A stretch of DNA of 60,361 nucleotides, taken from the NCBI GenBank assembly GCA_030631605.1, contig DAOVKV010000001.1, forward strand, positions 1 through 60,361, written 5' to 3'. Shown here one piece after another: positions 864 to 45,760 of the stretch (the stretch's first letter is position 1; every line of letters begins with the position of its first letter). This DNA is from a bacterium (GTDB taxonomy: Bacteria; Zixibacteria; MSB-5A5; CAIYYT01). The notes below the pieces were generated by a model that was not told the origin of the DNA, did no database searches, and saw only the letters and a list, made by a program, of their open reading frames with translations. A program made the position numbers and the translations under genes.

Positions 864-2038
864 GGGAAGTCTCCTTCTATTTTGCCGGCCGCTTGCATCG
901 CCGCCTGATGAGCTTTCGCAAATGACACTCCCGCAGCAGCGGCTACCTTGACTATATCCTCATATTCGGGGCTGAATTTACTCACATCGCCGCCGGAAAG
1001 AAACTTAATTCTTACCTTGCCGTATTCGGTTTGAACCTCTTTGATTTCTCGCGCCAGCTTTCGCCTCTTTTCCATCCGCAGCCGCAGACCGGCGGTGCTG
1101 GAATCGCGCAGGATGATCTCGCTTAATCGTTCGTCATCCTGCCGACGACAGATCACCGACAGCAGGAATCCGGGACGGTTCTTTTTCATCAGCACCGGCG
1201 TAACATAGACATCAAGTGCGCCTTTTTCGAGCAAGCGATTCTGGAGAAAGCCGATAAGCTGCGGCGTGGTGTCGTCGATGTTGGTCTCGATAATTGTGAC
1301 CTCGTCAGTCTCCCAGCCGGCTTGGGCGGAGCCGACAATCAGGCGCAACAGATTGGGTCGATCCGCACCGGCGCGGGTGCCGGCGCCATAGCCGATGTTT
1401 TCGGCTTTTATCTCATAACCAGGTGCGTACTGAGCCAGCTCGACAATGATGGCGGCTCCGGTTGGTGTGGTCATTTCGACGCCGCTGTCAATGCGCCTGA
1501 CCGGAAAGCCCCTGACAATCTCCTGTGTCGCCGGAGCGGGCAGAGGGATCATGCCGTGCGCCGACTTGATTATGCCGCTTCCCAGCAGGATGGCCGATGA
1601 ATAGAGCTTCTTAATACCGAGTTTCTCGAAACCGACCACGGCGGCGACAACATCACAGATGGCATCGACCGCCCCCACTTCATGGAAATGAATCTTCTCT
1701 AAGGGCAGGCCATGCACTTTTGCTTCCGCCTGACCGATACGGCGGAAGATCGCCACCGTTTTCTCCACCAAATGAGTCGCCAGCGTCGACTCGCGCAGGA
1801 TATTTTCTATCGCTACCAGGTTGCGACGAGGCGGATCGGTTTCGCCGGATTGAAAGCGGACACTGATACCTTTCAAGCTATGTCTGTTGACGGTCTCAGT
1901 GACCAGCTTCACACCGGGCAGGTTCAGCCGGTCAAGTTGGGATTGGAGATATTCCGGTTCGCAGCCGGCATCAATGATACTACCAACAATCATATCACCG
2001 GCAGCGCCGGCAAAACAGTCAAGATAACCGATTTTCAT
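860..2038 (-). CDS. larC: Nickel-pincer cofactor biosynthesis protein LarC (DUF111 nickel insertion protein)
   Basis: 392-aa ORF. N-terminus MKIGYLDCFAGAAGDMIVGS, HFHEVGAVDAICDVVA and the C-terminal LarC2-like part are typical of the DUF111/LarC family. larB lies in the same gene chain. Confidence 0.8.
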   Translation of the reverse strand: MKIGYLDCFAGAAGDMIVGSIIDAGCEPEYLQSQLDRLNLPGVKLVTETVNRHSLKGISVRFQSGETDPPRRNLVAIENILRESTLATHLVEKTVAIFRRIGQAEAKVHGLPLEKIHFHEVGAVDAICDVVAAVVGFEKLGIKKLYSSAILLGSGIIKSAHGMIPLPAPATQEIVRGFPVRRIDSGVEMTTPTGAAIIVELAQYAPGYEIKAENIGYGAGTRAGADRPNLLRLIVGSAQAGWETDEVTIIETNIDDTTPQLIGFLQNRLLEKGALDVYVTPVLMKKNRPGFLLSVICRRQDDERLSEIILRDSSTAGLRLRMEKRRKLAREIKEVQTEYGKVRIKFLSGGDVSKFSPEYEDIVKVAAAAGVSFAKAHQAAMQAAGKIEGDFP

Positions 2039-4545
2039 AAGGCTAACAGCGTTTGATCTTTCTTTGATGGGCGACGGCGGGTCCTGGCTGATTTCTCAGG
2101 TTTATCTGTAAGCTCAGCCAGAGACTTGCTTTTGTTCTTAAGGTCAGAGTAATTCTTGCGAAAGTGATTGTAGTAAATGACCTTCCAGCCATCTTTTGCG
2201 AATCGTTCCGCAAACATCGGCATTCTCAGTTTCCTTTGCAGCAATGGGTAACGTTCATCAGGCAGGAGAATGTACCTTTCTATCGACTCAGCAATGTGAG
2301 AACTGCGTTCCAGGACGGACGTAATGGACGTTGAATTTTCAACCTCGAACACCGCCCGGATTCTGTCTTCCTCAAGCCAGATCACATCTATGTTCAAGAT
2401 ATCCTTTAGAGCCTTCCGAGAGTATGGCAGGGAAGCTGCTTCTTTGAATGAGACCAGTGTCCGAAGCTTGTGGTCTCCCTGCGCCGTTCGATACTTCTCT
2501 CCCTGTTCTCTTCTGCCAATCCATATCTTGAACCCAAGCTCTGACCCCAATTCGGCCAGTTCCGCAATCAGGTTGTTGTGTTGCGACAGACTGTCACGGA
2601 CTGATTTCTTAAGCACCCACTCCCCTGAAGATGTCTTTTCCGCATATTCTTTCAGAGTCTCAACAATACTGGTACTGTCGGTCATCAGTGAATTTGGGAA
2701 TTCCAGGTTTACTTGTCGCCACATTTCAGTATAGGTAACTTTGTACTTGCTTGTCAGCAGGCGCAACACGCTTTGTTCAACTCTTTCGCTCAACGGGATT
2801 TCATGGTGCTTAATAATGCTGGGGTCCTTAAACCACCAGCTTTCGCCAACCGCGCTTCCCAACTCCGTGCGGACTAATACAAACACATCATCAAGGCTGT
2901 TTTGCAGAACCGTTTTGACGTCAAAGCCGGGATAGAGTTCGTGGAAAAAACCTTCCCGTGCGAGTACCGGATCGATGTAGTTAATTATCAGCGTATAAGG
3001 AGTAGGCTCCCACCGTTCCGCTAGAAGCCGCTTGGTCGTTTCAATAACAACGGCGCGAAATCTTGATTCGTTCAGACTCTTGCCCCTCTTTCTACCATTT
3101 ATATCATTCAACTTTCTTTGAAAGCGGAGATAGAAATCACCACTGGCGGACCCAAACGGCTGCAACAATGACTTGGCCGACGGACGCGCCAACTCTTGGT
3201 GATGAATCTTCTGGAATTCGAAGTTGGCAAACACTGCCGCCCTGATGGTTGCGTTCCTTACTTTGAAAGTTGGGTTGTGAAAGGTCACCGTGAAGTAGGA
3301 AGCAGGTTTCAGTATGCCGTAAATTTCCTTGAATGTCGCTGAGAGCATACTGTGATAACGTTCAAAATCCTTGTTCTGTCTCTCGTTGTGGATTACTTCG
3401 TCAGTCTCAATTCTCTCCAGGTATTGGTTGTCCTTCTTCAACCAGCAGACCCACATATATGACAATTCACCATACTGTATGGCAGAATCATAGGGGGGAT
3501 CAGTAAAGCAGTAATCACAAAGTACATCATGTTTTGCCAGTTCACGCAAGGTATCAAGCGCCGATGCATTGACGATCAACAGGTCCCGGTTGTTCTTGAC
3601 GAAATCCGTCACATTCCTGGCGATTGTCTTGCCCCGGAAGAGATCATTTGATTCCGCCTTCGCTTTCAAGATTCCCTGATGTCCTTTTACAGCACTCTTG
3701 AACTTGGCCCATACGTGCTGTTCCATGAATATCTTGGCATGCCAATAGCTGTGTTCAAACCAGACACCGCTTAGTGGTCTCGTAGGTCTGTCCGGCATCA
3801 TTTTGGAGCAAAGATGCACCATAGAAGAAAAAGCCATCAGAAACATCTCTCTTAGCTGCTGGTCTTGGATTCTATCAATCTCCGCGCGGATGAGCGCCAG
3901 GGCGTACAGCGCTCTCTGAGTAAATAGGTCATCGATGTTGCGATAGTGTTCTCGTTTCATAAACGGCTGACCGTCGCTATATTCCAGAGGTTGGTTGGGA
4001 TACCAGACTCCCGATTCCTTAAGCTCTTCTGAGACCTCTGCTACCAGCTTTTTGTCCTTTTTTTGTGGTGCGGTATTCTTTCTCCGTTCGTCGCCGCACT
4101 CCGGGCACTTGTATCTGACATCGTTAAGTCTTTCTTTGCCGAGAATATCTCGTTTCCAGATGTAGCACCTGGCTTGAATTTCTGCGCCACAGACTCTGCA
4201 TTTGGTGACATATAATGATTCTATCTTCCCCTTCACTGCTGCTTCGATTTTGGAAAAAGCATCGATTAGGGCCGTTTCTGAAATCAATTCCACTGTAGAG
4301 CGCAGAATGGAGGTGGCAATCGGATTGAGATCGATCGCTATCGCCCGACGGTTGCTCCTTAGAGCTTCAATAGCCGTAACGCCGCTGCCGCAGAATGGGT
4401 CGATCACTATTCCCCCCTCTGGGCAGTAAGTTCTTACAAACTCACCCACGACATTCCATGTTTTGCGCGACCAGAACTTGTGCCAATTGTACAACGGCGT
4501 GTGAGCCGCAGGTGGGACTTGATACTCTATGTGCTTCAATTTCAC
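2035..4545 (-). CDS. N6/N4 DNA methyltransferase with inserted zinc ribbon and a ~230-aa C-terminal nuclease-like extension
   Basis: 836-aa ORF. Motif I VIDPFCGSGVTAIEA at residues ~47-61. C4 ribbon CRVCG...CPECG at residues 116-150. Motif IV CFTDPPY at residues ~346-352, giving an alpha-type order with a ~300-aa spacer. N-terminal YNWHKFWSRKTW resembles Zn-ribbon adenine methylases (COG1743-like, from memory). C-terminus has NIDVIWLEED...AVFEVENSTS. GTG start. 4-nt overlaps with larB (GTGA) and larC (ATGA). Confidence 0.8.
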   Translation of the reverse strand: MKLKHIEYQVPPAAHTPLYNWHKFWSRKTWNVVGEFVRTYCPEGGIVIDPFCGSGVTAIEALRSNRRAIAIDLNPIATSILRSTVELISETALIDAFSKIEAAVKGKIESLYVTKCRVCGAEIQARCYIWKRDILGKERLNDVRYKCPECGDERRKNTAPQKKDKKLVAEVSEELKESGVWYPNQPLEYSDGQPFMKREHYRNIDDLFTQRALYALALIRAEIDRIQDQQLREMFLMAFSSMVHLCSKMMPDRPTRPLSGVWFEHSYWHAKIFMEQHVWAKFKSAVKGHQGILKAKAESNDLFRGKTIARNVTDFVKNNRDLLIVNASALDTLRELAKHDVLCDYCFTDPPYDSAIQYGELSYMWVCWLKKDNQYLERIETDEVIHNERQNKDFERYHSMLSATFKEIYGILKPASYFTVTFHNPTFKVRNATIRAAVFANFEFQKIHHQELARPSAKSLLQPFGSASGDFYLRFQRKLNDINGRKRGKSLNESRFRAVVIETTKRLLAERWEPTPYTLIINYIDPVLAREGFFHELYPGFDVKTVLQNSLDDVFVLVRTELGSAVGESWWFKDPSIIKHHEIPLSERVEQSVLRLLTSKYKVTYTEMWRQVNLEFPNSLMTDSTSIVETLKEYAEKTSSGEWVLKKSVRDSLSQHNNLIAELAELGSELGFKIWIGRREQGEKYRTAQGDHKLRTLVSFKEAASLPYSRKALKDILNIDVIWLEEDRIRAVFEVENSTSITSVLERSSHIAESIERYILLPDERYPLLQRKLRMPMFAERFAKDGWKVIYYNHFRKNYSDLKNKSKSLAELTDKPEKSARTRRRPSKKDQTLLAL

Positions 4546-11310: not shown

Positions 11311-12096
11311 TTAGTTTGTCTGTGCCGTCAATACCAGTTTCGGCGGTATATACATAGCGCCCCCCTGTCCGGTGACACCGACTCGGGAGATATTATTCTG
11401 GAAACCGGCGGGCAGCGAGAAAGATATGCCCGGATACTCAATCGGATTGTCATGGTAAGCCACCACCCAGACGTAGTAGGTTCCCTCCTTGAAACCCTGG
11501 GCATTATGGAAGGCGCTGATCGGTATCGATCCGGCAGTGACGCCGCTGGAGAAAAACTCACTATAACCGGCGACGCCGCTGGCAGTATTTTCTGCTTCCA
11601 CCACGACGAAATACCCGTCCGCATGGGTTGAGCTGTTCCAGGAAAGGGGAATAGTGGCATCACTGCTGCGCACTATATTGTCGGGAAGGCCGGGTGCGGT
11701 GAAGCTGAAAGTGTCGGGCATGTTACACAGGAAGTTGAAATTAAACACGTCAAGCACCGACGAGAGTTCAATTTTGAGTTGCCGCGTGTTGTCCAGCAGA
11801 TCACCGGAAAACCATTTGCCGTAATTACCCGGAGCGACTCGGTCGAGAGTGGCGATGGCAGCGGTGTCGGTGGCGTTGAAGACCGATATCACCATTCCAT
11901 CCAAAGGCTCACCATCGCGGATAATTTGCAGGTAGGAGATGATCTGTCCGCTGGCGCCATCATACGAGTGCACCAGATTGATCTCATGGTTGTTCTTCAC
12001 CTCGCCTGTGGTGCCGGTATCACCGCAGGAAGCGAGAAAGGATGCTAAGACCAGCAACAAAAGCCCCATCACTGTTGGATAGATTTTTGATTTCAT
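11311..12096 (-). CDS. Hypothetical lipoprotein
   Basis: 261-aa ORF with signal peptide and lipobox MKSKIYPTVMGLLLLVLASFLASCGD. No family recognised. Confidence 0.55.
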   Translation of the reverse strand: MKSKIYPTVMGLLLLVLASFLASCGDTGTTGEVKNNHEINLVHSYDGASGQIISYLQIIRDGEPLDGMVISVFNATDTAAIATLDRVAPGNYGKWFSGDLLDNTRQLKIELSSVLDVFNFNFLCNMPDTFSFTAPGLPDNIVRSSDATIPLSWNSSTHADGYFVVVEAENTASGVAGYSEFFSSGVTAGSIPISAFHNAQGFKEGTYYVWVVAYHDNPIEYPGISFSLPAGFQNNISRVGVTGQGGAMYIPPKLVLTAQTN

Positions 12097-12169
12097 CGGT
12101 TTCCTCTCTAATTACTTGCTCTCCACGGCCACCTGACCTGTCAGAGTGACGCTGGCGACACCGACCCGT

Positions 12170-12817
12170 TCAAGGCAGTTTGACACCGTTTATCACGGCG
12201 CTGTCCAGGTACATCGGTTCCTCATCAGGAGACACCACCAGTCCGATTCCGCGAGCGTAGTACTCATCATAGATGCTGGTATCGGCCGCCTGCGTATCGA
12301 AAAAGGTAACGACTATTTCATAATGCAGTTTCAGGCAACTGTCAAGCATCACATCGCTGACTTCTACAGATTCATATCCCTTGAAGGTTATGGTACCCGC
12401 GAAACTGGCGATATCCTGGCTGATACCGACAAACCGAGCAGTAGAATTGATATCATGAGGTTTGTCTTTTTCCAGATTCAAAGAAATCGGCAGCGGTGGC
12501 TCGAACCAGAGATTGACAGTTGACCCGAGCAGCAAATGCTGGGCAAAGCGTTCCTCAGTCAGGCTCCAGGCTTCTTCGGTGTAGCCGCCCTGCAGCACCC
12601 GGACACAGGTGTCACCGTTGATAATGGTGTCACCCGATATCAGGCGTTGAATTTCGCCGTTGTTGTAAGACCAGAAATCTCCTTCCTGGATCGGGAAATA
12701 CTCCATGCCGTTGGTGATTTTAATCGTACCGTTCGGGTCGGGTCCATTGCCGTTAGAGCAAGTGCAAAAAAGCGTAAGGCAAAGAAAAAATGTTAATATC
12801 AGCATGAAATATCGCAA
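12170..12817 (-). CDS. Hypothetical lipoprotein
   Basis: 215-aa ORF with hydrophobic N-terminus and Cys (LILTFFLCLTLFCTCSNG). GGGAGGGA Shine-Dalgarno upstream. Start is ambiguous between TTG at 12817 and ATG at 12805. Confidence 0.5.
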   Translation of the reverse strand: MRYFMLILTFFLCLTLFCTCSNGNGPDPNGTIKITNGMEYFPIQEGDFWSYNNGEIQRLISGDTIINGDTCVRVLQGGYTEEAWSLTEERFAQHLLLGSTVNLWFEPPLPISLNLEKDKPHDINSTARFVGISQDIASFAGTITFKGYESVEVSDVMLDSCLKLHYEIVVTFFDTQAADTSIYDEYYARGIGLVVSPDEEPMYLDSAVINGVKLP

Positions 12818-12999
12818 TATCCCTCCCAGCTTGAAGGTTACCCAGTAGTCTAACCAATCATTTGTAATTATACACGCGAAAAATGATCTATGTCCAGGTA
12901 TCGGGTCATTTGCCGTTTCAGTTTACGATGTGAACTGGTTATACTTTTCCGGACACACAGATTTGGATAAATTAGAGATTAGACAAGGAGGTGTGTTAA

Positions 13000-13323
13000 G
13001 TGAGTGAAAAGAAGAAGTTACCGACCTATACTGCTGATTTCAAGGAGTCAGCCGTCAAGGTCCGGCCCTGACGGGCGGTACAATTGGCAGTATCGAGTAA
13101 TCAATCAATTGCGCAGACCGCAAGGGAACTGGGAGTCAACCAGAATACGCTTTATACCTGGATTGGGAAGTATCATCATTCCGGTAAAGGTAGTCAGAGC
13201 CAGGTAGACGACGAGCAACTTTATGATAAGCTGAAACGGCTGCAAAGAGAGAACCGTCGTCTCAAGGAGGAGCGAGACATCTTAAAAAAGGCGGCCGCGT
13301 ACTTCGCGAGAGCTGCGGAGTGA
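13000..13323 (+). pseudogene. IS3 orfA (HTH protein) interrupted by an in-frame TGA
   Basis: GTG at 13000 follows AAGGAGG. Reads SEKKKLPTYTADFKESAVKVRP-TGA(13069-13071)-RAVQLAVSSNQSIAQTARELGVNQNTLYTWIGKYH...ILKKAAAYFARAAE. The TGA and the following ORF (13084..13323) are in the same frame. Confidence 0.75.
13284..13290 (+). promoter_or_regulatory. A AAA AAG -1 programmed frameshift heptamer of the IS3 element
   Basis: In the orfA frame the sequence reads tt-A-AAA-AAG-gcg. The -1 frame continues into orfB (KKGGRVLRESCGVRYGFIKQH...). This is the canonical IS3 arrangement. Confidence 0.65.
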
Positions 13324-13529
13324 GGTACGGATTTATCAAGCAGCACAGGATTGAGTTTCATGTGATTCTGATGTGTCAGGTGTTGAGAGTGTCCCGCAGT
13401 GGTTATTACGAGTGGCTGAGACGGCCGGAAAGCAGCCGCCATCGTGAAGACCGACGCTTAAGCCGGGCGATCATGGCAATTCACCGAAGAAGTCGCGCCA
13501 CCTATGGTAGTCGACGTATCAAGGCAGAA

Positions 13530-13543
13530 CCCGCCGCGGCGGG
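13530..13543. repeat. 14-bp perfect palindrome CCCGCCGCGGCGGG, copy 1
   Basis: Read directly from the sequence. It starts on a codon boundary of orfB and shifts the frame by +2. Confidence 0.95.
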
Positions 13544-13997
13544 GGTGAACAGGTGAGCCGCACCCGTATTAGCCGCCTGCTGAAGGAGCAGGGACTCAAG
13601 GTGAAGAGTAGACGCAAGTTCAAAGCCACCACCAACTCGAAACATAAGCTGCCGGTAGCGCCAAACCTTCTTGAGCGGAAGTTCACTGTGGCAGAGCCGA
13701 ATCAGGTTTGGTTATCGGATATCAGCTACATTTGGACTGCTGAGGGTTGGTTATATCTGGCTGGGATTGTTGATCTCTATTCGCGGATAGTGGTTGGCTG
13801 GTCGCTGAACAGGCGAATCACGAAAGAGTTGACGCTCGACGCGTTAAACCAAGCTCTGAAACGCCGTTGTCCCCAGCCGGGTCTTTTACATCACTCTGAT
13901 CGTGGCAGCCAGTATGCGGCTGGTGATTACCAAGACCTGTTACATGACAACAAGATGATTTGCAGTATGAGTCGCAAGGGCGACTGCTGGGATAATG

Positions 13998-14011
13998 CCC
14001 GCCGCGGCGGG
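13998..14011. repeat. 14-bp perfect palindrome CCCGCCGCGGCGGG, copy 2
   Basis: Read directly from the sequence. It sits between CWDNA and SFFATLK, where the catalytic Glu is expected. Confidence 0.95.
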
Positions 14012-14125
14012 TCGTTCTTTGCCACCCTGAAAACAACAGAGTTGGTCTTCCATGAGCAGTTTGCTACTCGCGAAGAGGCTAAACGAAAGATATTTGAGTA
14101 CATTGAGGTGTTTTACAACCGACAA

Positions 14126-14139
14126 CCCGCCGCGGCGGG
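14126..14139. repeat. 14-bp perfect palindrome CCCGCCGCGGCGGG, copy 3
   Basis: Read directly from the sequence. It sits between FYNRQ and HSTIGY and shifts the frame by +2. Confidence 0.95.
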
Positions 14140-14366
14140 CATTCTACTATTGGCTATCAATCACCGGCTGATTATGAAGAAAAGCAGGAGAAAGTCGCGT
14201 GAACCCGTGTCCGGAAAACTCTTGCCAGATCATCACGCCGTCGTCGTCGGTGTCACAGGGGGCGGGTCAAGAGTCTGGCTCTCAAGGCGAACTAAGGTGC
14301 AAAGAATCGGGTGAGAAGCAAGAGAGACTCAAGCCGTCTCAGGAATGTACTTTTCGCTGGGACTTT

Positions 14367-16220
14367 CTACAACCCCCCCCCATCGATTGTCCGCAGAATC
14401 GTGCCATTGTAACCTACCGCTGTACCTGTATTAACATCTGTAAAGTCGACGTTGTAAAGAACATAATCTGTGCCGCTTGTCTGGCTCACCCAGGTAGCAC
14501 CACCATCTGTTGTCCGTAGAATCGTGCTCCCTTCGCCCACTGCTGTACCAATGCTTGCATCGACAAGACTGATTCCATCAAGGTACTTTGTGGTTCCGCT
14601 TGTTTGGCTTTCCCACGTTGCGCCGCCGTCTATCGTCCTAAGAATCGTCCCTCCTTCGCCAACTACCGTTCCCACATTGGCGTCAGCAAAGCTGACGCGG
14701 GAAAGCTCAGCATTCGTACCGCTCGTCTGGTTCACCCAGGTTGTGCCACCATCAGTAGTCCGTAGAATCGCGCCGTTATCGCCAACGGCCATACCCGAAT
14801 TCGCATCAGCAAAATCGACCCCGATAAGATCCATCGACGTGCCGCTCGTTTGTTTCACCCAGGTTGTGCCACCATCTGTGGTCCGTAGAATCGTGCCAAG
14901 GGCACCGACCGCTGTACCCGTACTAGCATCGATAAAGCTGACGGTGGCAAGCCAATTAATCGTGCCGCTCGTCTGGCTCACCCAGTTTGCGCCGCCGTCT
15001 GTTGTGCGCAAAATCGTACCCTCTTCACCAACAACCGTTCCCGTATTAGCATCGATAAAGCAGACGCCGTTAAGCCAATTAATCGTGCCGCTCATCTGGC
15101 TCTCCCAGTTTGTGCCGCCGTCCGTCGTCCTCAGGATCGTGCCATTTAAGCCTACTACCGTGCCCGTATTTGCATCAGTGAAGCTGACCGCGCGAAGAAC
15201 CTCTGTCGTGCCGCTTCTTTGATTCACCCAGGTTACACCACCGTTCTCTGTACGCAGCGTCACGCCAGCAAAACCCACCGCCATGCCTGTGGTTGCGTCG
15301 AAAAAGCTGACTGCCGATAGAATATCGAGTGTCCCGCTCGTTTGACTCACCCAGTTAGCACCACCATCTGTTGTCCGTAGAATCGTGCCATAATAGCCTA
15401 CCACTGTGCCCGTATTTGCATCAGCAAAGCTGACCCCGGAGAGATGGGTGCTCGTACCGCTTGTCTGGTTCTCCCAGGTAGCGCCGCCGTTGGTTGTCCG
15501 CAGAATCGTGCCACCGTAACCAACCGCGGTGCCCGTGTTCGCATCAGTGAAGTTGATTTCTATGAGAACATAGCTTGTGTTACTTGTCTGGCTCACCCAA
15601 GTAGCACCGCCATCCGTTGTCTGTAAAATCGTGCCCTGGATCCCGACTGCAGTACCGGTACTAGCATCGGTAAATGTAACTGAGGTGAGGCTCTTTGATG
15701 TACCGCTCGTCTGGCTCACCCAGGTAGCACCGCCATCTGTTGTCCTGAGGATCGTGCCATGATCGCCTACCGCCGTCCCCGTATCCGCATCAGTAAAGCT
15801 GACCCCGGAAAGATCAAAGTTAGTGCCGCTTGTTTGTCGCACCCAAGTTGTGCCCCCATCAGTTGTCCGCAAGATCGTGCCACCGGTGCCCACAACCGTA
15901 CCCGTGTTGGCATCTGCAAAGCTAACGCTGGTGAGCCAGTTGTCGTCTCCAATTGTCTGCCTCACCCACGTTGCGCCCCCATCTACTGTCCTGAAAATCG
16001 TGCCGCGACCTACCGCTATGCCCGTGTTCGCATCGGTCAGCTCAATGTCTCCTATCCAATTGCCATGTGGTAACGGATTCTGCCAGTACCAACCAGCTGG
16101 CCCCGAGGGAACATCTCCGGGATCTGTCGGTTTGTCGCCGTCACAGGCGCATATGGTACACAACAAGACAATTCCAACGAGGATTCTCGTGACCGGATTA
16201 GTGATGGATTGGCGCGCCAT
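14367..16220 (-). CDS. Lipoprotein with 14 BNR/Ycf48-like beta-propeller blades
   Basis: Start moved to ATG at 16220 (MARQSITNPVTRILVGIVLLCTICACDG, a lipobox). It has 14 repeats of ~41 aa of the form xxLxxVSFxDANTGTAVGxxGTILRTTDGGxTWxxQTSGT. The repeats also create long shadow ORFs on the plus strand. Confidence 0.8.
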   Translation of the reverse strand: MARQSITNPVTRILVGIVLLCTICACDGDKPTDPGDVPSGPAGWYWQNPLPHGNWIGDIELTDANTGIAVGRGTIFRTVDGGATWVRQTIGDDNWLTSVSFADANTGTVVGTGGTILRTTDGGTTWVRQTSGTNFDLSGVSFTDADTGTAVGDHGTILRTTDGGATWVSQTSGTSKSLTSVTFTDASTGTAVGIQGTILQTTDGGATWVSQTSNTSYVLIEINFTDANTGTAVGYGGTILRTTNGGATWENQTSGTSTHLSGVSFADANTGTVVGYYGTILRTTDGGANWVSQTSGTLDILSAVSFFDATTGMAVGFAGVTLRTENGGVTWVNQRSGTTEVLRAVSFTDANTGTVVGLNGTILRTTDGGTNWESQMSGTINWLNGVCFIDANTGTVVGEEGTILRTTDGGANWVSQTSGTINWLATVSFIDASTGTAVGALGTILRTTDGGTTWVKQTSGTSMDLIGVDFADANSGMAVGDNGAILRTTDGGTTWVNQTSGTNAELSRVSFADANVGTVVGEGGTILRTIDGGATWESQTSGTTKYLDGISLVDASIGTAVGEGSTILRTTDGGATWVSQTSGTDYVLYNVDFTDVNTGTAVGYNGTILRTIDGGGL

Positions 16221-16724
16221 TGCCGTTCTCCCTTCGATTTGGCTTTTTGAGATACGATTACTGACCATATTTACAATGAACGGACATCCTGTTATGTGTT
16301 AATGCAAGTATAATCCTCGGAACAAGGGACGTCAATGAAAAAGATTGTAAAAGTGAATATCCTCCACTCCATTGACCTGTCTCCAACGTATCGGTCCAGT
16401 CTTGGAAGAAAGTCTCGATTGTGGTTGAATCATGAAGGAAGGGCGAACGGACTAAAGCGGTCTTTGCAAGCCGTAGAGGACTTATGACCTGCCCCGTTTG
16501 CTGTACCACACGTTGAGTTTCTCCTGCAAGCCTAGGTTTTCTCAACAATCCGGCACGCCGTCGTCGTCGGTTAGGGGTGAAGTCTCTCGTCCCATCACTG
16601 AGCGCTTTAACACAGGATCGATTTAAGGGGTAGGCCGGCAAAGCCTTGCTTCTTCTCAGAATCGTGGTATATTCGAATCATGTTGTTAAGGATATGCCAC
16701 GAGGAGCTTTCCCATGAGGTATTT

Positions 16725-16912
16725 ATGAACTGCAAAAAACGGGCTATTGTAGGAATTTAGTCTGCCTGCTGACGTTCTGTATGATGCTTGCATCTTGCGG
16801 AGACGATCCTACTTCTCCGGATCCACCGCCGCAGGATTATTTGTGGGCGGCAGACGTCCGCGTCTACCCTTTGTTTATCCGGCGGATGGGTAGATCGGGA
16901 AATCTGCCGTGA
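16725..16912 (+). pseudogene. Possible small lipoprotein gene split at an A6 tract
   Basis: ATG at 16725 gives MNCKK then a stop. Adding one A to the A6 run (16734-16739) yields MNCKKTGYCRNLVCLLTFCMMLASCGDDPTSPDPPPQDYLW..., a signal peptide with lipobox. Very tentative. Confidence 0.25.
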
Positions 16913-36689: not shown

Positions 36690-38858
36690 ATGAAACCCAC
36701 ACTTCTACTCACAACGTTCGTAGCTGTCACACTGATACTGGCAGCCGCAAGTGCAATGGCAGCAGTGCCGCAAATGATCAACTACCAGGGGCGGTTAACA
36801 GATTCTGCAGGAGTACCGATAGACGGTGCTCAGCTGATCAAGTTCATCATTTATGACGACTCTACGGATGGCAACGAACTCTGGAACAGCGGCTTCCAAA
36901 ACGTGACCGTAACAGGTGGCCTTTTCAGCAAGCAATTGGGGGCTTCGCCGATGCCACCCATCCCGGACACGGTCTTTTTGGACACTGTCCGTTATCTGGG
37001 AATAACTGTAGGAGTCGACCCAGAGATTACACCGCGCACGAAGTTAATCTCTGTTCCGTATGCTTACTACGCCCTGCACTCTGATACTGCGGCGATAGCC
37101 ATCATCTCGCAGGATATTTCCTGTGTTGGCTGTGTCGGCTCCACCGAAATCGAGGATGGCACCATTCAGTTTGGCGATATCGGTAATAATGGAGCCTCAG
37201 AAAACCAGGTGATGAAATGGAACGGTTCTGCCTGGGCGCCGGCTAATGACGAGACCGGCGGTGGCGGTGATATTACAGCAGTTAATGCTGGCAATGGCTT
37301 GACTGGTGGTGGCACAACCGGTGATGTAACTATCTACATTGACAGTGGTTGGGTCGACGCCTTTGTTGACACTGCCGATGCTCGTTACGCGGATCAAGCA
37401 GGTTTTGCGGACTCTGCGGATGCCATCACCGATGGTGCCGTAGACTTTACCGATATCGGCCAGAACGGCGCAGCGTTAGATCAGGTGATGAAGTGGAGTG
37501 GCTCGAATTGGATTGCCGCCGATGATGAAACCGGCAGCGGCGGCGGCTGGGTTGATGACGGCGACGTCTTGAGGCTTGAGACTGCGACCGACTCGGTTGG
37601 TATAGGCACCGCCACACCCACAGAGAAACTCGAAGTGTCGGGCAATATCAAAGCCAGCGGAACGATTCAAAGCGGAAATTCGATAGTAATTGACGGCAGC
37701 ACTGACAAGATCACCGCATCTGGCGGAATGATTGATTTCGACGATGAGAATCTGGTGACTACCGGTAAGGCAACCATTGGTCCCAACAACACCAATACAG
37801 GAGTAGACGCCTTCGTGGCAGGCAGTTACAACAAAGCCTACGGTGACTACTCTGTGATAGCTGGTGGTGGAGGCGCTGCCGAAGCTGACTCAAACGCCGC
37901 GCCCGGAGATAATTCGACCGTGGGTGGTGGTGCCGGGAATCGGGCCAGCGATTACTTCGCTACGATCTCCGGCGGCCGGCTAAACACTGCAGCTGAGTAT
38001 GGCAGCACTGTCGGTGGCGGGCAGTTCAACACTGCCAGCGGCCATGACGCGGTCATCGGTGGTGGTCAGATGAACGTTGCCAGCGGCAGTAGCAGCACTG
38101 TCGGCGGCGGGGATAGCAACGGGGCAACCAATAGCTTCAGCACTGTCGGCGGCGGGAGCAGCAACCAGGCAACGGGTGAGTTCAGCACGGTCGGCGGCGG
38201 GAATGGCAACCATGCCAGAAGCTACTGGAGCACTGTCAGCGGCGGTTACAGTAATCGAGCCAATGGTTCATGTAGTACCGTTCCCGGCGGTCATCTTAAC
38301 TACGCCGACAGTGCCTATACATTTGCAGCCGGTAGACGGGCCAAAGCCGTGCATGACGGCGCTTTTGTCTGGGCCGACCACACCGATGCTGACTTCACCT
38401 CCACTGCGAGTGACCAGTTCCTCATTCGCGCCAATGGTGGCGTCGGCATCGGCACAAACTCGCCTTCAGAAGAACTTCACGTCGTTGGTGATATTTGCTA
38501 TACCGGTACTATAGGCGCGTGTTCTGATGTTCGCTACAAGAAGGATATCGAAACTATCGGGGCAGCTTTGGAGACTGTGTTGCAGCTTCGCGGTGTCACG
38601 TACAATTGGAAGCAGGGCGAATACCCGGATCAGAAGTTCGACGACCAGACTCACCTCGGATTCATCGCCCAGGAGATCAAAGACCTGCTGCCGGGTGTGG
38701 TCATGACAGACAACGACGGCTACATGTCGGTCGACTACAGCCGCCTGACACCGTTGTTGGTGGAAGCCATGAAAGAACTGAAAACTGAGAATGATGAGCT
38801 GCGTAACAGACTTGCCAAGATTGAAGCGCTCCTGCAGCAATTGGTCAATAACCAGTAA
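36690..38858 (+). CDS. Secreted fibre/adhesin-like protein with a C-terminal S74 intramolecular-chaperone domain
   Basis: Signal peptide ends ...AASAMA-AV. N-terminal INYQGRLTDSAGVPIDG...LWNS module. YadA-head-like repeats STVGGGxxNxAxxxxSTVGGG. C-terminal CSDVRYKKDIE...LRGVTYNWK...GFIAQE...VDYSRL plus a coiled coil (Peptidase_S74 pattern). Confidence 0.75.
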   Translation: MKPTLLLTTFVAVTLILAAASAMAAVPQMINYQGRLTDSAGVPIDGAQLIKFIIYDDSTDGNELWNSGFQNVTVTGGLFSKQLGASPMPPIPDTVFLDTVRYLGITVGVDPEITPRTKLISVPYAYYALHSDTAAIAIISQDISCVGCVGSTEIEDGTIQFGDIGNNGASENQVMKWNGSAWAPANDETGGGGDITAVNAGNGLTGGGTTGDVTIYIDSGWVDAFVDTADARYADQAGFADSADAITDGAVDFTDIGQNGAALDQVMKWSGSNWIAADDETGSGGGWVDDGDVLRLETATDSVGIGTATPTEKLEVSGNIKASGTIQSGNSIVIDGSTDKITASGGMIDFDDENLVTTGKATIGPNNTNTGVDAFVAGSYNKAYGDYSVIAGGGGAAEADSNAAPGDNSTVGGGAGNRASDYFATISGGRLNTAAEYGSTVGGGQFNTASGHDAVIGGGQMNVASGSSSTVGGGDSNGATNSFSTVGGGSSNQATGEFSTVGGGNGNHARSYWSTVSGGYSNRANGSCSTVPGGHLNYADSAYTFAAGRRAKAVHDGAFVWADHTDADFTSTASDQFLIRANGGVGIGTNSPSEELHVVGDICYTGTIGACSDVRYKKDIETIGAALETVLQLRGVTYNWKQGEYPDQKFDDQTHLGFIAQEIKDLLPGVVMTDNDGYMSVDYSRLTPLLVEAMKELKTENDELRNRLAKIEALLQQLVNNQ

Positions 38859-38885: not shown

Positions 38886-39437
38886 ATGAGAACTCTATTC
38901 ACAGCGACGAAACTGGGATTGGTGGCCATGCTGCTCATTGGCAGCCTGACCATTGCCGCAGACAATGCCGGCAATTCAGGCAAACCAGGCACAGAAACTG
39001 AAGCCACACAACCCGGCAGGTTTGGTGAAACGATCGACTGGCAGGTGATCTCCTCCGGCGGTACTGATGGCAGTTCCACCAACTACCAACTGATGGGAAC
39101 GGCAGGACAAACAGCCGTTGGGACAGGTAGCTCGACCAACTACGGCCTGAATCAGGGGTACTGGCAGGAGTTTGCCGTTCAAGAGTGTGACTGTATTCCG
39201 GGCGATGCCGACGGCAATGCTATGATCAATATTGCCGATGTCGTCTATCTGATCAATTTTATTTTCGGTGGCGGCCCTGGGCCGGTACCATACGCCATCT
39301 GTTCCGGCGATGCCGACTGTAACTGCATGGTTAATATCGCCGATGTTGTGTTCCTGATCAGCTTCATCTTCGGAGGTGGCCCCGCGCCGTGCACCTGCGA
39401 GGAGTGGCTGTCTATTTGCGGCCCACCAATGAGATGA
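38886..39437 (+). CDS. Small secreted protein with a C-terminal dockerin-like module
   Basis: Signal/anchor sequence. Two EF-hand-like dockerin repeats, GDADGNAMINIADVVYLINFIF and GDADCNCMVNIADVVFLISFIF, flanked by Cys. GGAAGGAG Shine-Dalgarno. Confidence 0.7.
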   Translation: MRTLFTATKLGLVAMLLIGSLTIAADNAGNSGKPGTETEATQPGRFGETIDWQVISSGGTDGSSTNYQLMGTAGQTAVGTGSSTNYGLNQGYWQEFAVQECDCIPGDADGNAMINIADVVYLINFIFGGGPGPVPYAICSGDADCNCMVNIADVVFLISFIFGGGPAPCTCEEWLSICGPPMR

Positions 39438-39446
39438 CGTAAGTTC

Positions 39447-39484
39447 GCAGGTCGGAACCTCTACGGTTTCGACCTGCTCTTTTC
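39447..39484 (+). terminator. Hairpin plus T-tract after the dockerin gene (also a member of the REP-like stem family)
   Basis: GCAGGTCGGAACC-tctac-GGTTTCGACCTGC followed by TCTTTTC. Confidence 0.55.
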
Positions 39485-39500
39485 ACGCTCCCGCGTGAAT

Positions 39501-39530
39501 GTCGAAAGCGCGGGACTTGTAACCTACAAG
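39501..39530 (-). repeat. REP-like hairpin with GTAG head (copy 3, degenerate stem)
   Basis: Plus strand reads GTCGAAAGC-gcggg-ACTTGTAAC-CTACAAG. Confidence 0.45.
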
Positions 39531-39593
39531 GGCGCAGCGCTATCCCTCTTCAACCCGTGATAGTTTTTGAGGAAAGTCCAACGAAAAAAACCC

Positions 39594-40035: not shown

Positions 40036-42606
40036 ATGAGAAAAGCAGCTTACATTTCGTTGGCTCTGGCGTTGGTGGCGTTTGCCGGGCCGACGGCAGA
40101 TGCCCTGGCCAAAACCGTGAGTCTTTCAACGACTTCGGGCAATGGTGTTGCCAGCACGGCTATTCCGACAATGGGATTAGCCGCTTATTGGCAGTTTGAT
40201 GAAGGAAGTGGAAGCACGGCTTACGATGAAACGTGTAACAATAACGATGGAACAATCAGAGGAGTAAGCTGGACAAATGGCGTCTCTGGGGGTGCTCTGT
40301 ACTTTCACGGCGGGGGACAATGGCATGACGGTGACCGTGTGCTCGTACCACACTCTTCCAGCCTGGATATCACCGGCGAGTTGACCATCACCGCCTGGAT
40401 AAAAGCAACTGGAACAGACAACTACCTGGCAATTGTTGACAAGTTTCGTGGCGGTGCGACAATTCCTTCCTACGGATTTACGCTATATGTCAGTTCGGGA
40501 AGACTCAGACTTTCAATCTACTCTGGTCCTGACGGACACCACGACGGCTGCGTAGGAACATCTGAACTGAGGGACGATACCTGGCATCATGTCGCTGGCG
40601 TATGGGATGGCAGTCATATTAAGGTCTATGTTGACGGGCAACTAGAAAGGGAAGTGGCATGGGCCTTCCCACCAGCTTCAACAACCAATGATCTTGGGAT
40701 TGGCGAACGACCCTACGGCTATGGGGGATATCTGCCATTCCTCGGAGTTATCGATGGGGTCTGTATCTACAAGAAAGCATTGAGCGATACTGAGATAATG
40801 GGGCAGACTGTCGGTAACACAGTCGATTTGACACCCTATTTCGATTGGGGTGCGATCTCCTCCTACGCCGGCTTAGCTCCGCCGGGGTATATGGGAATTT
40901 GGTCCCCCTCTCACAGCATGAACTTCTTTTTCCCCTCGGATTCCTCCGCTCCAGACCCCGCGGGTAATAGTCCCAGGGCGTGGCTCATCCCGGGAGTTCA
41001 CCTGGCCACTTTCTATGGACCTGACAGTGTGTTCATCCCCAGTAATCCTATGGTTATTGTTCCTGACAGATATTCCAAACCTTGTTCCCTCCTCGTGGAG
41101 ATTCCGCCGGCGAATCTCATAGATCAGGCCACTGATTCGAATGTGATCCAAATATCCACAAGTGAGACTAAAACGATACCCCTCAACGACACGGTGGAAA
41201 CCATGGTCTTTCTGGCAAATTGTGACGGGGCCGCCTATTGTAGTCCTGATCAGCCGTTAGAGGTACGGATCAACTATCAGGATGGTACAGCAGATACTGT
41301 GGTCTTCGACAATATCCATCCAGGGGAACGCTCAACTTATGTTTCCGACCCCAACATCATCTGTTACGGCAATGAAGTTTTCGGCTGTGGTCCCTTTTAT
41401 ACTGACTTTCCCCCTCCCTACTCTACCGACTCGCACTCGGAGTTCTGGCACTGGTATACCCTGTACCCGGATAACACTAAGCTGCTCAACAGCATAGCTT
41501 TCGTAGGGATACAAAGTGAACACCCCTCTGAGATTCACATCTCGGCTCTCTCCTACACTAGACCGCTGCCACTTGAATGGGGCGAATCCATAGACAATTC
41601 GGTCGATTTAACACCCTATTTCGATTGGGGTGCAATCTCCTCCTACGCCGGCTTAGCCCCGCCAGGGTTTATCGGAATTTGGTCCCCCTCTCACAGCAGG
41701 TACTTTTATTTCCCCTCTGATTCCCTGGCTCCAGGCATGCCTCCTAATTATCCCCGAGCCTGGCTCGTCCCGGGAGTTCACCTGGCCACTCTCTATGGAC
41801 CTCATAATGTGCTCATTCCCAGTAATCCCATAGTTGCCGTTCCTGACAGAAACTTTAAACCCTGTTCCCTCTTTGTGGCAGTTCCGCCGGCGAATCTCAT
41901 AGATGAGGCAACTGATGTAAATGTGATCCAAATATCCTCGGGTGAGACTAAAACGATAGCCATCAACGACACTGCGGAAACCATGGTCTTTCTGGCAAAT
42001 TGTGACGGGGCCGGCTATTGTAGTCCTGACCAGCCGTTAGAGGTGCGGATCAACTACAATGATGGTACAGTAGATACTGTGACCTTTGCCAATATCCATC
42101 CGGGGGAACGCGCAAATCCCATTTTCTGGGGGCCTTATACGATCTATTGCAATGAAGTTTTCGGCTGCGGTCCCTTTTATAATGACCTTCCCGTTCCCTA
42201 CTCCACCGACTATCACTCGGAGTTCTGGCATTGGTATGCCCTGTATCCGGATAACACCAAGCCCATCAACAGCATAACCTTCGTAGGGATACAGAGTGGA
42301 TACCCCTCTGAGGTTCACATCTCGGCTCTCTCCTACAATAAGCAGAAATGTGACTGCATACCAGGTGATGCTGACGGCAACGGCATTATTAACATCGCCG
42401 ATGTCGTTTATCTGATCAGCTTCATCTTTCTTCCTGGCAGCCCACCGCCGACGCCGTACGCTACCTGTTCCGGCGATGCTGACTGTAACTGTATGGTTAA
42501 CATCTCTGACGTCGTCTACCTGATCAACTTCATCTTCGTTCCTGGCAGCGCACCGCCTTGCACTTGCCAGCAGTGGCTGGCTGCCTGCGGCCCACCACTA
42601 AGATGA
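40036..42606 (+). CDS. Secreted LamG/concanavalin-like protein with a duplicated ~260-aa domain and a C-terminal dockerin-like module
   Basis: ATG 40036 after AAGGAGGAAG; the track start 39928 is unlikely. Signal peptide MRKAAYISLALALVAFAGP. LamG-type segment (LAAYWQFDEGSGSTAYDE...TITAWIKA...DDTWHHVAGVWDG...VYVDG). Two near-identical domains. Dockerin repeats at the C-terminus. Confidence 0.75.
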   Translation: MRKAAYISLALALVAFAGPTADALAKTVSLSTTSGNGVASTAIPTMGLAAYWQFDEGSGSTAYDETCNNNDGTIRGVSWTNGVSGGALYFHGGGQWHDGDRVLVPHSSSLDITGELTITAWIKATGTDNYLAIVDKFRGGATIPSYGFTLYVSSGRLRLSIYSGPDGHHDGCVGTSELRDDTWHHVAGVWDGSHIKVYVDGQLEREVAWAFPPASTTNDLGIGERPYGYGGYLPFLGVIDGVCIYKKALSDTEIMGQTVGNTVDLTPYFDWGAISSYAGLAPPGYMGIWSPSHSMNFFFPSDSSAPDPAGNSPRAWLIPGVHLATFYGPDSVFIPSNPMVIVPDRYSKPCSLLVEIPPANLIDQATDSNVIQISTSETKTIPLNDTVETMVFLANCDGAAYCSPDQPLEVRINYQDGTADTVVFDNIHPGERSTYVSDPNIICYGNEVFGCGPFYTDFPPPYSTDSHSEFWHWYTLYPDNTKLLNSIAFVGIQSEHPSEIHISALSYTRPLPLEWGESIDNSVDLTPYFDWGAISSYAGLAPPGFIGIWSPSHSRYFYFPSDSLAPGMPPNYPRAWLVPGVHLATLYGPHNVLIPSNPIVAVPDRNFKPCSLFVAVPPANLIDEATDVNVIQISSGETKTIAINDTAETMVFLANCDGAGYCSPDQPLEVRINYNDGTVDTVTFANIHPGERANPIFWGPYTIYCNEVFGCGPFYNDLPVPYSTDYHSEFWHWYALYPDNTKPINSITFVGIQSGYPSEVHISALSYNKQKCDCIPGDADGNGIINIADVVYLISFIFLPGSPPPTPYATCSGDADCNCMVNISDVVYLINFIFVPGSAPPCTCQQWLAACGPPLR
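40822..42336 (+). repeat. Intragenic tandem duplication, period 780 nt (units ~40822-41556 and ~41602-42336)
   Basis: The string GTCGATTT(G/A)ACACCCTATTTCGATTGGGGTGC... recurs exactly 780 nt apart. The units stay alignable to ...CACATCTCGGCTCTCTCCTAC. Confidence 0.85.
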
Positions 42607-42615
42607 CGTAAGTTC

Positions 42616-42653
42616 GCAGGTCGGAACCTCTACGGTTTCGACCTGCTCTTTTC
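42616..42653 (+). terminator. Hairpin plus T-tract, near-identical to 39447-39484
   Basis: GCAGGTCGGAACC-tctac-GGTTTCGACCTGC followed by TCTTTTC. Confidence 0.55.
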
Positions 42654-42668
42654 ACGCTTCGCGTGAAT

Positions 42669-42698
42669 GTCAAAAGCGCAGGGCTTTTGACCTACAAG
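42669..42698 (-). repeat. REP-like hairpin with GTAG head (copy 4)
   Basis: Plus strand reads GTCAAAAGC-gcagg-GCTTTTGAC-CTACAAG. Confidence 0.6.
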
Positions 42699-42761
42699 GA
42701 TGCAATCCCTGGGTTGTCACGCTCCAGGAAATCGCGACCCACGGCTTTTCTCACAACCTCA

Positions 42762-42915: not shown

Positions 42916-43629
42916 ATGAGAAAAATTCTTGGTAAGTTGTGTTTGGGCATCGTTCTTCTGGCTCTGGTACTCACGCCGGTTGAGCTTTGCGGTCAGTCAT
43001 TCATTTGCGGCGATGTCGATGCGAACAGTATGGTCAATATCGCCGATGTTGTCTATGTAATAACTTATATTTTCGGCGGCGGGCCTTCTCCTGATCCACT
43101 TCTGGCAGGCGATGTCGATTGCGATGGCACGGTGAATATCGCCGATGTGGTGTTCTTGATCAACTACATCTTCGCTGGCGGGCCGGAGCCCTGCGCTGTT
43201 CCGACCGGAATTCTGGTCGACTACGCCGGCTGCAAAACATTCACAAGGGGAAGCGCCGCCGGTAGTACGCCGCCCGATCAGGACTGCATAGAGTATCAGT
43301 ATGATGGAGCAAGAACTCTTCTGCTTAAGCATATAAATGCAGGTTTCAATTGCTGTCCCGTCATTGCGGCTGACATAACCATTGAGGGGAATCTCATAAC
43401 AATACATGAGAGCGAGTCTTTTGATAGCACGGGGCCGTGTTGGTGCCTCTGTCTTTTTGATTTAGACTTGGAAATCAGCAATCTGAGCCCCGGAGAGTAT
43501 ACAATAAGTGTAATCGAGGTATGCACAAATCCAGAGGATGAAATCCTGGAATTCACCGTGAACTTGGTTTCCTCACCTTCAGGCATGTATTGTGTATTCA
43601 GGGATCACTATCCCTGGGGTTTCTATTGA
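42916..43629 (+). CDS. Secreted protein with an N-terminal dockerin-like module and a Cys-rich C-terminal domain
   Basis: ATG 42916 after AAGGAGGGAGG. Signal peptide MRKILGKLCLGIVLLALVLTPVELCG. Dockerin repeats GDVDANSMVNIADVVYVITYIF and GDVDCDGTVNIADVVFLINYIF follow the signal peptide directly. Confidence 0.7.
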   Translation: MRKILGKLCLGIVLLALVLTPVELCGQSFICGDVDANSMVNIADVVYVITYIFGGGPSPDPLLAGDVDCDGTVNIADVVFLINYIFAGGPEPCAVPTGILVDYAGCKTFTRGSAAGSTPPDQDCIEYQYDGARTLLLKHINAGFNCCPVIAADITIEGNLITIHESESFDSTGPCWCLCLFDLDLEISNLSPGEYTISVIEVCTNPEDEILEFTVNLVSSPSGMYCVFRDHYPWGFY

Positions 43630-43640
43630 TACCTGTGCGC

Positions 43641-43672
43641 GGCAGGTCTCCCGACCTGCCCGTCCGTTTTTT
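43641..43672 (+). terminator. Rho-independent terminator
   Basis: GGCAGGTC-tccc-GACCTGCC followed by CGTCCGTTTTTT. Confidence 0.65.
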
Positions 43673-43700
43673 GCAGGTCGGAACCCTTACGATTTCGACA

Positions 43701-43847
43701 AACTGGTAACCCGCGCAGCGGGTGGGCTTGAGTGATTGTGCCTGAAATGCTTGTCTCAATCAGTACCATTTATCTTCCCGATCTCAAAGTGTTGGTATCA
43801 GCATCTCAGGCAACGCCTGAGGAACTCACCTGTTAGGTGGGGTACCG
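43701..43847 (+). repeat. ~147-bp hairpin-ended repeat, copy C1 (complete)
   Basis: AACTGGTAACCCGCGCAGCGGGTGGGCTTGAGTGATTGTGCCTGAAATGCTTGTCTCAATCAGTACCAT...CTCACCTGTTAGGTGGGGTACCG. It ends 14 nt before the protease ATG. Confidence 0.85.
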
Positions 43848-44755: not shown

Positions 44756-44880
44756 AACTGGTAACCCACTCAGTGGGTGGGCTTGAGTGATTGTGTCTGA
44801 AATGCTTGTCTCAATCAGTACCATCTCTCTTCCCTAAATCTCAAAGTTTTGGTATCAGCATCTCAGGCAACGCTTAAGGT
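44756..44880 (+). repeat. ~147-bp hairpin-ended repeat, copy C2 (3' hairpin missing)
   Basis: AACTGGTAACCCACTCAGTGGGTGGGCTTGAGTGATTGTGTCTGAAATGCTTGTCTCAATCAGTACCAT...GGCAACGCTTAAGG. Confidence 0.85.
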
Positions 44881-45609: not shown

Positions 45610-45760
45610 AACTGGTAACCCACTCGGCGGGTGGGCCTCGAGTGATTGTGCCTGAAATGCTTGTTTCAATCAGTACCATCTCTCTCCCCTAAATCTCAAA
45701 GTGTTGGTATCAACATCTCGGGCAACGCCTAAGGAACCCACCTGTAAGGTGGGGTACCGG
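45610..45760 (+). repeat. ~147-bp hairpin-ended repeat, copy C3 (complete)
   Basis: AACTGGTAACCCACTCGGCGGGTGGGCCTCGAGTGATTGTGCCTGAAATGCTTGTTTCAATCAGTACCAT...CCCACCTGTAAGGTGGGGTACCGG. Confidence 0.85.

Follow-up and report, generated by a model that had tools for sequence, protein, structure and literature searches.

Three copies of one 14-nt palindrome replace sequence in a recently inactivated IS3-family transposase gene of a deep-sea sediment bacterium

Short-range template switching is known to yield perfect hairpins (PMC7954356, PMC8794818), and template-switch mutation at quasipalindromes has been described in Escherichia coli (PMC7202029). In double-strand-break repair, a partly copied strand can re-align on another template, which provides a break-repair precedent (bioRxiv 10.1101/2023.08.09.552703). 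Here we examine a degenerate insertion sequence (IS) of the IS3 family located in a stretch of 60,361 nt (hereafter the window) from the metagenome-assembled genome (MAG) of a deep-sea sediment bacterium, recovered from a complex sediment metagenome. The transposase gene of this IS carries at three sites one and the same 14-nt palindrome, CCCGCCGCGGCGGG, each copy standing in place of conserved bases. To our knowledge, no bacterial case has been described in which one exact short palindrome replaces sequence at several sites of one gene.

The three copies are exact, all lie inside the IS (Table 1) and span 610 bp, with no flanks shared among them. A first-pass annotation, made from the letters of the window, had reported these three copies and none elsewhere, and our pattern search bears this out even with up to two mismatches allowed. 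Outside the copies the longest sub-words of the 14-mer measure 9 nt, one of them being the partial match already noticed in tsaD (CCGCCGCGG at 23424). Protein-coding repeats aside, the 14-mer is the sole 14-nt word present three times. Under Markov models (order 0-3) fitted to the window minus the IS, 5e-4 to 1.5e-3 exact copies per window are predicted, i.e. P(>=3) of ~1e-11 to 5e-10, in line with the earlier judgement that the pattern is far from chance; 0/100 shuffles gave three matches. A general excess of palindromes in the window was ruled out, since 60 palindromes of at least 10 nt were observed vs ~62 in simulations. The three-copy pattern is thus confirmed as real and far from chance, at a single locus.

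We then examined what the palindrome had replaced. The protein search returned intact relatives at 84-86% identity (P0001-P0003) together with the window's own broken open reading frame (ORF; P0004), the latter from NCBI and Logan. The contigs of the relatives were fetched and aligned at the DNA level, and the protein alignment included 8 relatives, down to 60% identity. At site 1 the relatives carry CTGACCGAGCAG, CTGGCGGAGCAG or CTGACAGAGCAG, i.e. the 12 nt CTGAC(C/A)GAGCAG or CTGGCGGAGCAG, and at site 2 (C)ACCGATGGAG or (C)TCCAATGGAA, which makes 11 nt with the shared C counted. The canonical residues at all three sites are kept in 8/8 aligned relatives, and 8/8 have the glutamate of the catalytic aspartate-aspartate-glutamate (DDE) triad at site 2. 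The 14-mer state is therefore derived and the events are deletion plus insertion, not pure insertion; the earlier estimate of 6-12 nt replaced at each site agrees with the 12, 11 and 6 nt obtained by DNA alignment.

The effects on the reading frame were also as first read. A +2 shift is caused by copy 1 and again by copy 3; with these copies deleted, ...RRIKAE continues into GEQVSRTR... and the frame is restored after ...FYNRQ. Copy 2 is frame-neutral and sits on the DDE glutamate. Site 2 alone hits a catalytic residue, sites 1 and 3 being conserved, non-catalytic motifs. Two further lesions had been missed by the first-pass annotation: an in-frame insertion of 24 nt in orfA, which brings in a TGA stop codon, and a 3-nt tandem duplication of ACA in orfB. 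With its flanking bases, the orfA insertion forms an imperfect GC-rich palindrome centred between CC and GG, which folds as a hairpin CCGTCA..TGACGG. As a donor for this insertion we found in the window only a 12-mer at 7936, without flanking similarity and probably due to chance. In total the copy carries five lesions, all of them block events adding sequence, four of which inactivate the element independently. No intact copy of this IS is on record from the same sample (P0001, P0003 and P0121 come from other samples), nor is the window's 78-amino-acid (78-aa) orfB fragment on record as a called gene.

Table 1. Features of the degenerate IS and its lesions, in window coordinates.
Feature	Position	Strand	Basis and details
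Degenerate IS3-family insertion sequence	12931..14232	+	1302 bp now, ~1262 bp pre-lesion; ends set by alignment with 4 intact relatives
Left terminal inverted repeat TGAACTGGTTATACTTTTCCGGACAC	12931..12956	+	matches the reverse complement of 14207-14232 at 21/26; conserved in relatives
orfA (helix-turn-helix transposase N-terminal ORF), interrupted	13000..13323	+	Pfam PF01527 (HTH_Tnp_1)
24-nt in-frame insertion CGTCAAGGTCCGGCCCTGACGGGC in orfA	13053..13076	+	TGA at 13069-13071; absent from all relatives
A AAA AAG -1 frameshift heptamer, intact, in the orfA/orfB overlap	13284..13290	+	read directly; invariant in 4 relatives
orfB (DDE transposase), split over three reading frames	13320..14202	+	frame analysis and protein alignment
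14-mer copy 1	13530..13543		replaces 12 nt, L(T/A)EQ, HTH_21 region; net +2, frameshift
14-mer copy 2	13998..14011		replaces 11 nt, (A)PME with the DDE glutamate; net +3, frame kept, codes RRGG
3-nt ACA tandem duplication	14033..14038	+	LKTTEL vs LKTEL; DNA and protein alignment
14-mer copy 3	14126..14139		replaces CGACGG (6 nt), RR of conserved YNRQRRHS; net +8, +2 frameshift
Right terminal inverted repeat (...CCAGATCA)	14207..14232	+	alignment to relatives

Judged from its codons, and with these lesions set aside, the copy seems to have been functional until recently. Among codon changes private to the window copy, 23 are synonymous vs 12 nonsynonymous (P = 4e-6 under neutrality), and with 66 synonymous to 61 nonsynonymous changes among the intact relatives compared mutually, the window copy is no worse than they are. 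Neither point nonsense mutations nor 1-nt frameshifts were found in the copy outside the lesions, and orfA minus its 24-nt insertion is 97% identical to the intact OrfA P0121. The 14-mer lesions are derived, identical, recent, gene-inactivating and of the deletion-plus-insertion type. Block lesions with a net gain of sequence are the reverse of ordinary deletion-biased decay. Four independent knock-outs by sequence-adding block lesions therefore speak for a burst of an unusual mutational process rather than for slow decay or selection, and their number points to a high local mutation rate, not to selection.

We further looked for the 14-mer beyond the window. As the first-pass annotation had proposed, related loci were searched for the 14-mer and for intact copies of this IS: intact relatives were found, whose alignment indicates replacement, and the 14-mer with up to one mismatch was absent from 176 IS-related loci (592 kb). 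Matches with two mismatches in these loci were scattered and fell in high-GC loci. The reference-genome and metagenome scans gave, among the matches listed, relatives of at most 66% identity, this genome and the known 86% relatives not being among them. The 14-mer does occur in at least 120 viral contigs, always as one copy only, with a median GC of 0.66; these occurrences are chance background. In one contig of the IMG/VR collection of uncultivated virus genomes (L285, 67% GC), three copies of an 18-nt palindrome, CCGCGGCGATCGCCGCGG, lie within 1.3 kb (at 9437, 10187 and 10708). It was rejected as an analogue, its copies being embedded in a longer repeat with conserved flanks, unlike the 14-mers of the window.

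This distribution bears on a first alternative, already offered in the first-pass annotation, in which a tiny palindromic element that invades DNA, akin to the GC clusters or palindromic repeats of organelles or to a minimal REP-like unit (REP, repetitive extragenic palindrome), would have inserted three times into this IS. An identical unit with sharp boundaries at three sites without common flanks would fit, and spreading short GC-rich palindromes have precedents, sometimes in genes, such as GC42 of yeast mitochondria (PMC4478555). However, the remaining 59 kb of the window had no copy, although ~8 kb of it is non-coding, the usual place for such elements to gather, nor was there one in the 592 kb of IS-related loci, and the three sites show a deletion of 6-12 target nt instead of a target-site duplication. 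The unit has neither a GTAG head of the REP type nor a shared flank, and its 14 nt fall far below any described mobile palindrome (GC42 measures 42 nt and makes an AG duplication). Moreover, no Y1/RAYT-like gene was present among the 26 window proteins scanned. An invasive element is thus unsupported by the searches and we consider it unlikely.

The junctions are more informative. Identity with the 14-mer unit amounts to 0-2 nt over the six junctions, varying with the relative taken as parent. Variable deletions (12, 11 and 6 nt), a fixed insert and such short junction homology constitute a signature of end-joining or template switching, not of transposition, which would duplicate the target. 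We tentatively favour, with a probability of roughly one in three (0.35), a reading in which repair patches were repeatedly copied from one palindromic template; what it says of the mechanism, of the sequence of events and of where the first copy came from is a proposal. A break or stalled fork would have been repaired with a loss of 6-12 nt and patched with the same 14-nt palindrome, in three places. In such a scheme, a 3' end would leave its template, copy a short palindromic template and re-align a few bases downstream (template switching or templated filler synthesis). The first copy, on either strand and including a nascent-strand copy, could then template the later ones, since a perfect palindrome is its own reverse complement. 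Such a self-templating palindrome would explain the identity of the copies, their clustering in 610 bp and their absence elsewhere in the window. Error-prone, hairpin-prone repair of this kind would also have produced the near-palindromic orfA insertion; that this fourth lesion is likewise a GC-rich near-palindrome argues for the reading, and multi-nucleotide replacement giving a perfect inverted repeat, as expected of template switching, is seen at all three 14-mer sites. Among the origins suggested by the first-pass annotation, a gene-conversion-like one comes closest to this reading.

The same junctions are predicted by a second alternative, the capture of an abundant self-annealing 14-nt oligonucleotide, as a blunt duplex, which would serve as filler at end-joined double-strand breaks after resection of a few bases. 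Capture would produce variable small deletions, a fixed identical insert and 0-2 nt of junction microhomology, and a palindromic oligonucleotide inserts identically either way round. On the other hand, no source of such an oligonucleotide is visible and three separate breaks within 610 bp are required, so that we find this alternative improbable. We know of no similar case of oligonucleotide capture described in bacteria.

Several observations weigh against repeated copying from one palindromic template. A template for the first copy, whether an arm or a sub-word of at least 10 nt, was sought without success in the window, the IS and the relatives: copy 1 could have served for copies 2 and 3, yet for copy 1 itself no template is visible. 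The copies are 128 and 468 nt apart, and documented short-range switches copy from tens of bases off. It would also be odd for a switch to start and stop at the exact boundaries of the palindrome each time, and the junction microhomology is minimal (0-2 nt). The rarity of the 14-mer in this genome was assessed over the 60 kb of the window. Finally, a third assembly of the same BioSample (ENA ERZ23498525) breaks inside the IS, giving contigs that correspond to 11641-13052 and 14178-16895. Both break ends fit graph nodes of k=55: 12998-13052 starts right after a private single-nucleotide polymorphism at 12997, and 14178-14232 represents the last 55 nt of the IS. Judging from these break positions, other IS variants sharing those 55-mers are probably present in the sample. 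All lesions are likely to be linked on one molecule, as deduced from the assemblies.

These breaks also speak for a third alternative, an artefact or chimeric consensus, where aberrant library molecules or a path stitched from several IS variants would have produced the pattern; that the MAG comes from a complex sediment metagenome goes in the same direction. The break at 13052 also falls at the left border of the orfA insertion; we do not over-interpret this. The reads (Illumina HiSeq X Ten, 2x150) had been assembled by the authors with MEGAHIT, followed by binning and re-assembly (PMC9357000). An independent assembly of the same run (SRR13892601), Logan (k=31), contains a contig (SRR13892601_512449, locus L012, encoding P0004) of which 2887 bp are identical to window positions 11641-14527. 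This contig spans all three 14-mers plus both IS-chromosome junctions, with unique flanks on either side, and because it reproduces the deposited sequence exactly, an assembler artefact is unlikely. The 14-mer is shorter than any k used, therefore each copy with its flanks must be present in at least two reads; copies 2 and 3, lying 128 nt apart, fit one 150-nt read. Similarly, no relative carries the 14-mer, therefore mixing of strains or variants cannot generate it. The exact string gave zero matches in a full-text search of 8 million papers, hence it is not a known adapter or linker, and no palindrome-prone amplification step was reported for the library. An assembly or consensus artefact, which the first-pass annotation had left among its options, is now unlikely, and its broader form with aberrant molecules or stitched variants seems to us rather improbable too. 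The break at 11641 is common to two assemblies and hints at strain variation or low coverage at that position.

A perfect palindrome could also be left behind by another element. In this fourth alternative, the 14-mers would be scars of imprecise excision of an element with termini CCCGCCG...CGGCGGG, seven nt being kept from each end. Two inverted termini make a perfect palindrome automatically, the same at every site, and 'nearly precise excision' of Tn10 indeed leaves a palindromic remnant. But three insertions and three excisions in one 1.3-kb IS would be needed, and target bases are missing, not duplicated. No such element or looped arms were found in the window or in any locus: a search of the window and the 176 loci for these arms around a loop of 0-80 nt, as expected of a larger hairpin element, gave only chance matches in GC-rich DNA. 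Excision scars are accordingly very unlikely.

Directed inactivation was the remaining suggestion of the first-pass annotation. Here a dedicated host or selfish system would overwrite transposase genes, or the palindromes would be selected as binding sites for a dimeric protein. Four independent knock-outs in an otherwise well-preserved IS, one of the lesions falling exactly on the catalytic glutamate, could be taken as the mark of such a system, and identical perfect palindromes are typical of protein-binding sites. Against this, the phenomenon is confined to a single locus, sites 1 and 3 are non-catalytic, and the copies lie >700 nt from the nearest promoter region; selection is also unlikely to create three identical 14-nt deletion-plus-insertion events. 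No candidate machinery was visible nearby: the 26 neighbouring proteins scanned included nothing suggestive, and the sole DNA-modifying gene within 10 kb encodes a type II methyltransferase fusion, 9 kb off, for which no link to the 14-mer could be demonstrated. A restriction-modification signal at the CCGCGG core was rejected as well, this hexamer not being avoided in the window (14 sites vs 20 expected). Directed inactivation is thus neither supported nor excluded by the position of the lesions, site 2 speaking for it and sites 1 and 3 against, and we give a dedicated system or binding-site selection very little credence. We regard as quite unlikely, too, that a process so far undescribed writes a fixed 14-nt palindrome over the transposase, whether as an IS-disabling host mechanism, a prokaryotic counterpart of repeat-induced mutation, or as the smallest self-propagating 'replacer', spreading by patch replacement.

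Two other candidates were set aside. The IS of the L001 lineage contains just three copies of the pentamer ACCGA, each at a lesion site; L176 and L011, the closest relatives at sites 1 and 2, do not have it, and it was rejected as a target motif, being a lineage-specific coincidence. Breakpoints of mosaicism or recombination matching the lesions were not convincing. The methyltransferase fusion itself, a protein of 836 aa (2035-4545, minus strand), combines an N6/N4 type II DNA-methyltransferase domain with similarity to PglX and, at its C-terminus, a weak match to a restriction enzyme. Its gene is probably a type IIG-like fusion serving restriction-modification or defence, and has a larC-like (Ni insertion) and an AIR-carboxylase-like gene as neighbours.

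The host element is an ordinary member of the IS3 family, now dead. It has the two-ORF layout of the family, an OrfA with a helix-turn-helix domain followed by an OrfB with a DDE/rve domain. Repaired orfB matches PF13276 (HTH_21), PF00665 (rve) and PF13333 (rve_2) in Pfam, and NF033516 (IS3 family transposase) in NCBIfam with a score of 373.6 bits (cutoff 160). The terminal inverted repeats of 26 nt begin with TGA... and finish with ...TCA, giving ends of the IS3 type (5'-TG...CA-3'); both these repeats and the frameshift heptamer are intact, as had been noted. Both catalytic aspartates are kept (SDISY and HSDRG), but with RRGG in place of the glutamate the DDE triad is incomplete. No target-site duplication of 3-4 bp was found at the IS, which is flanked by ATG (12928-12930) vs TCA (14233-14235), and it is likewise absent around the copies of intact relatives on other contigs. 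One of these relatives (L002, 787-1845, a JGI contig) lies directly downstream of a transposase gene of the IS110 family (DEDD), in a nest of mobile elements.

The neighbours of the IS are a gene for a hypothetical protein of 215 aa on one side and a gene for a 633-aa protein with BNR/Ycf48-like repeats on the other. The latter (14367-16268, minus strand) abuts the right end of the IS and contains a tandem array of ~12 units of 123 nt (41 aa) at 14380-15882. Two further short in-gene tandem repeats have a 45-nt unit repeated 2.7 times (38093-38212) and a 60-nt unit repeated three times (46700-46880). Paired 81-nt repeats coding for a dockerin-like motif (GDADGNG..NIADVVYLINFIFGG) lie at the C-termini of three neighbouring genes (39197-39382, 42360-42548 and 43005-43184). 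Directly downstream of these genes lie conserved non-coding repeats of 30-100 nt (39444-39536, 42613-42704 and 43670-43699), e.g. TTCGCAGGTCGGAACCTCTACGGTTTCGAC, which has two identical copies and one at 87%. A second non-coding family, of 101 nt, is spaced by ~1 kb (43724-43824, 44779-44879 and 45634-45734), beside a tRNA gene at 45853-45925. In Rfam, no RNA family was matched in or near the IS. Elsewhere in the window, PYLIS_3, the pyrrolysine insertion sequence of mttB, matched 57490-57589 (minus strand) with 39.8 vs a gathering threshold of 38 bits, inside an ORF of 486 aa (57074-58534), which suggests that this ORF is a gene for an MttB-family methyltransferase.

On balance, and tentatively, the killing of this element at a single MAG locus would belong to the templated or filler kind of deletion-plus-insertion mutation, in a manner that is not ordinary. 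If the lesions are genuine on single molecules, there is a mutational route that pastes one exact palindrome repeatedly within 600 bp and so destroys a gene quickly and at several points, a pattern that standard models of pseudogene decay, with small deletion-biased indels and point mutations, do not predict. In that case template-switch or filler-DNA mutagenesis, documented so far mainly in E. coli reporters and eukaryotic genomes, would extend to natural bacterial populations, and a palindrome could template its own further copies. If the 14-mer were widespread in the genome, it would rather represent a new, unusually small invasive element. For annotators, the locus is a caution: intact ends and an intact frameshift site do not guarantee that an IS is functional.

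Compared with known systems, the host element resembles the IS3 family in its orfA/orfB pair and A6G frameshift site, its rve domain of the DDE type and its TG...CA inverted repeats, and departs from a functional one by its missing catalytic glutamate, its three frames, the stop in orfA and the lack of a target-site duplication. The organellar GC clusters of fungi and algae, such as yeast GC42 (PMC4478555), which are sporadic in distribution, resemble the 14-mer as short GC-rich palindromes that can land in or near coding sequence. However, these clusters measure 30-50 nt, have dozens of copies, mostly intergenic or intronic, and duplicate an AG target, whereas the window has three copies of 14 nt in one gene with the target deleted; the lossless insertion with target duplication that marks GC clusters is not seen, 12, 11 and 6 nt of target being gone. 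REP elements and BIMEs (bacterial interspersed mosaic elements), mobilised by RAYT/Y1 proteins, are short hairpin-forming bacterial repeats, as is the unit of the window. REP elements and BIMEs lie outside genes in hundreds of copies, each an imperfect palindrome of 20-40 nt that bears a conserved GTAG head, and the window unit shows none of this: there are zero REP-like extragenic copies outside the IS in 60 kb, nor is there another such short dispersed non-coding repeat.

Similarly, the cyanobacterial HIP1 (GCGATCGC; PMC5861425, PMC4390886) is an exact palindrome that occurs within genes far above expectation, like the 14-mer. HIP1 is genome-wide, arises by substitution, keeps the frame and is linked to methyltransferases, whereas the 14-mer is local, came via indels, breaks the frame in 2/3 copies and gives no genome-wide signal in 60 kb. 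Excision remnants and filler DNA combine a small deletion with a short insertion, and remnants of inverted termini are palindromic, as in the window; an identical insert at three sites is not described for them in bacteria, and here they would be without known parent element or oligonucleotide source. Known template switches differ in that they copy the adjacent arm of an existing imperfect inverted repeat and are specific to a locus, whereas the window shows the same 14-mer at three unrelated sites with no prior arm visible. In other respects the lesions of the window are like template-switch mutations of E. coli, yeast and primates, clustered multi-nucleotide changes of the deletion-plus-insertion type that arise in replication or break repair, require little homology and make a perfect palindrome in a single step.

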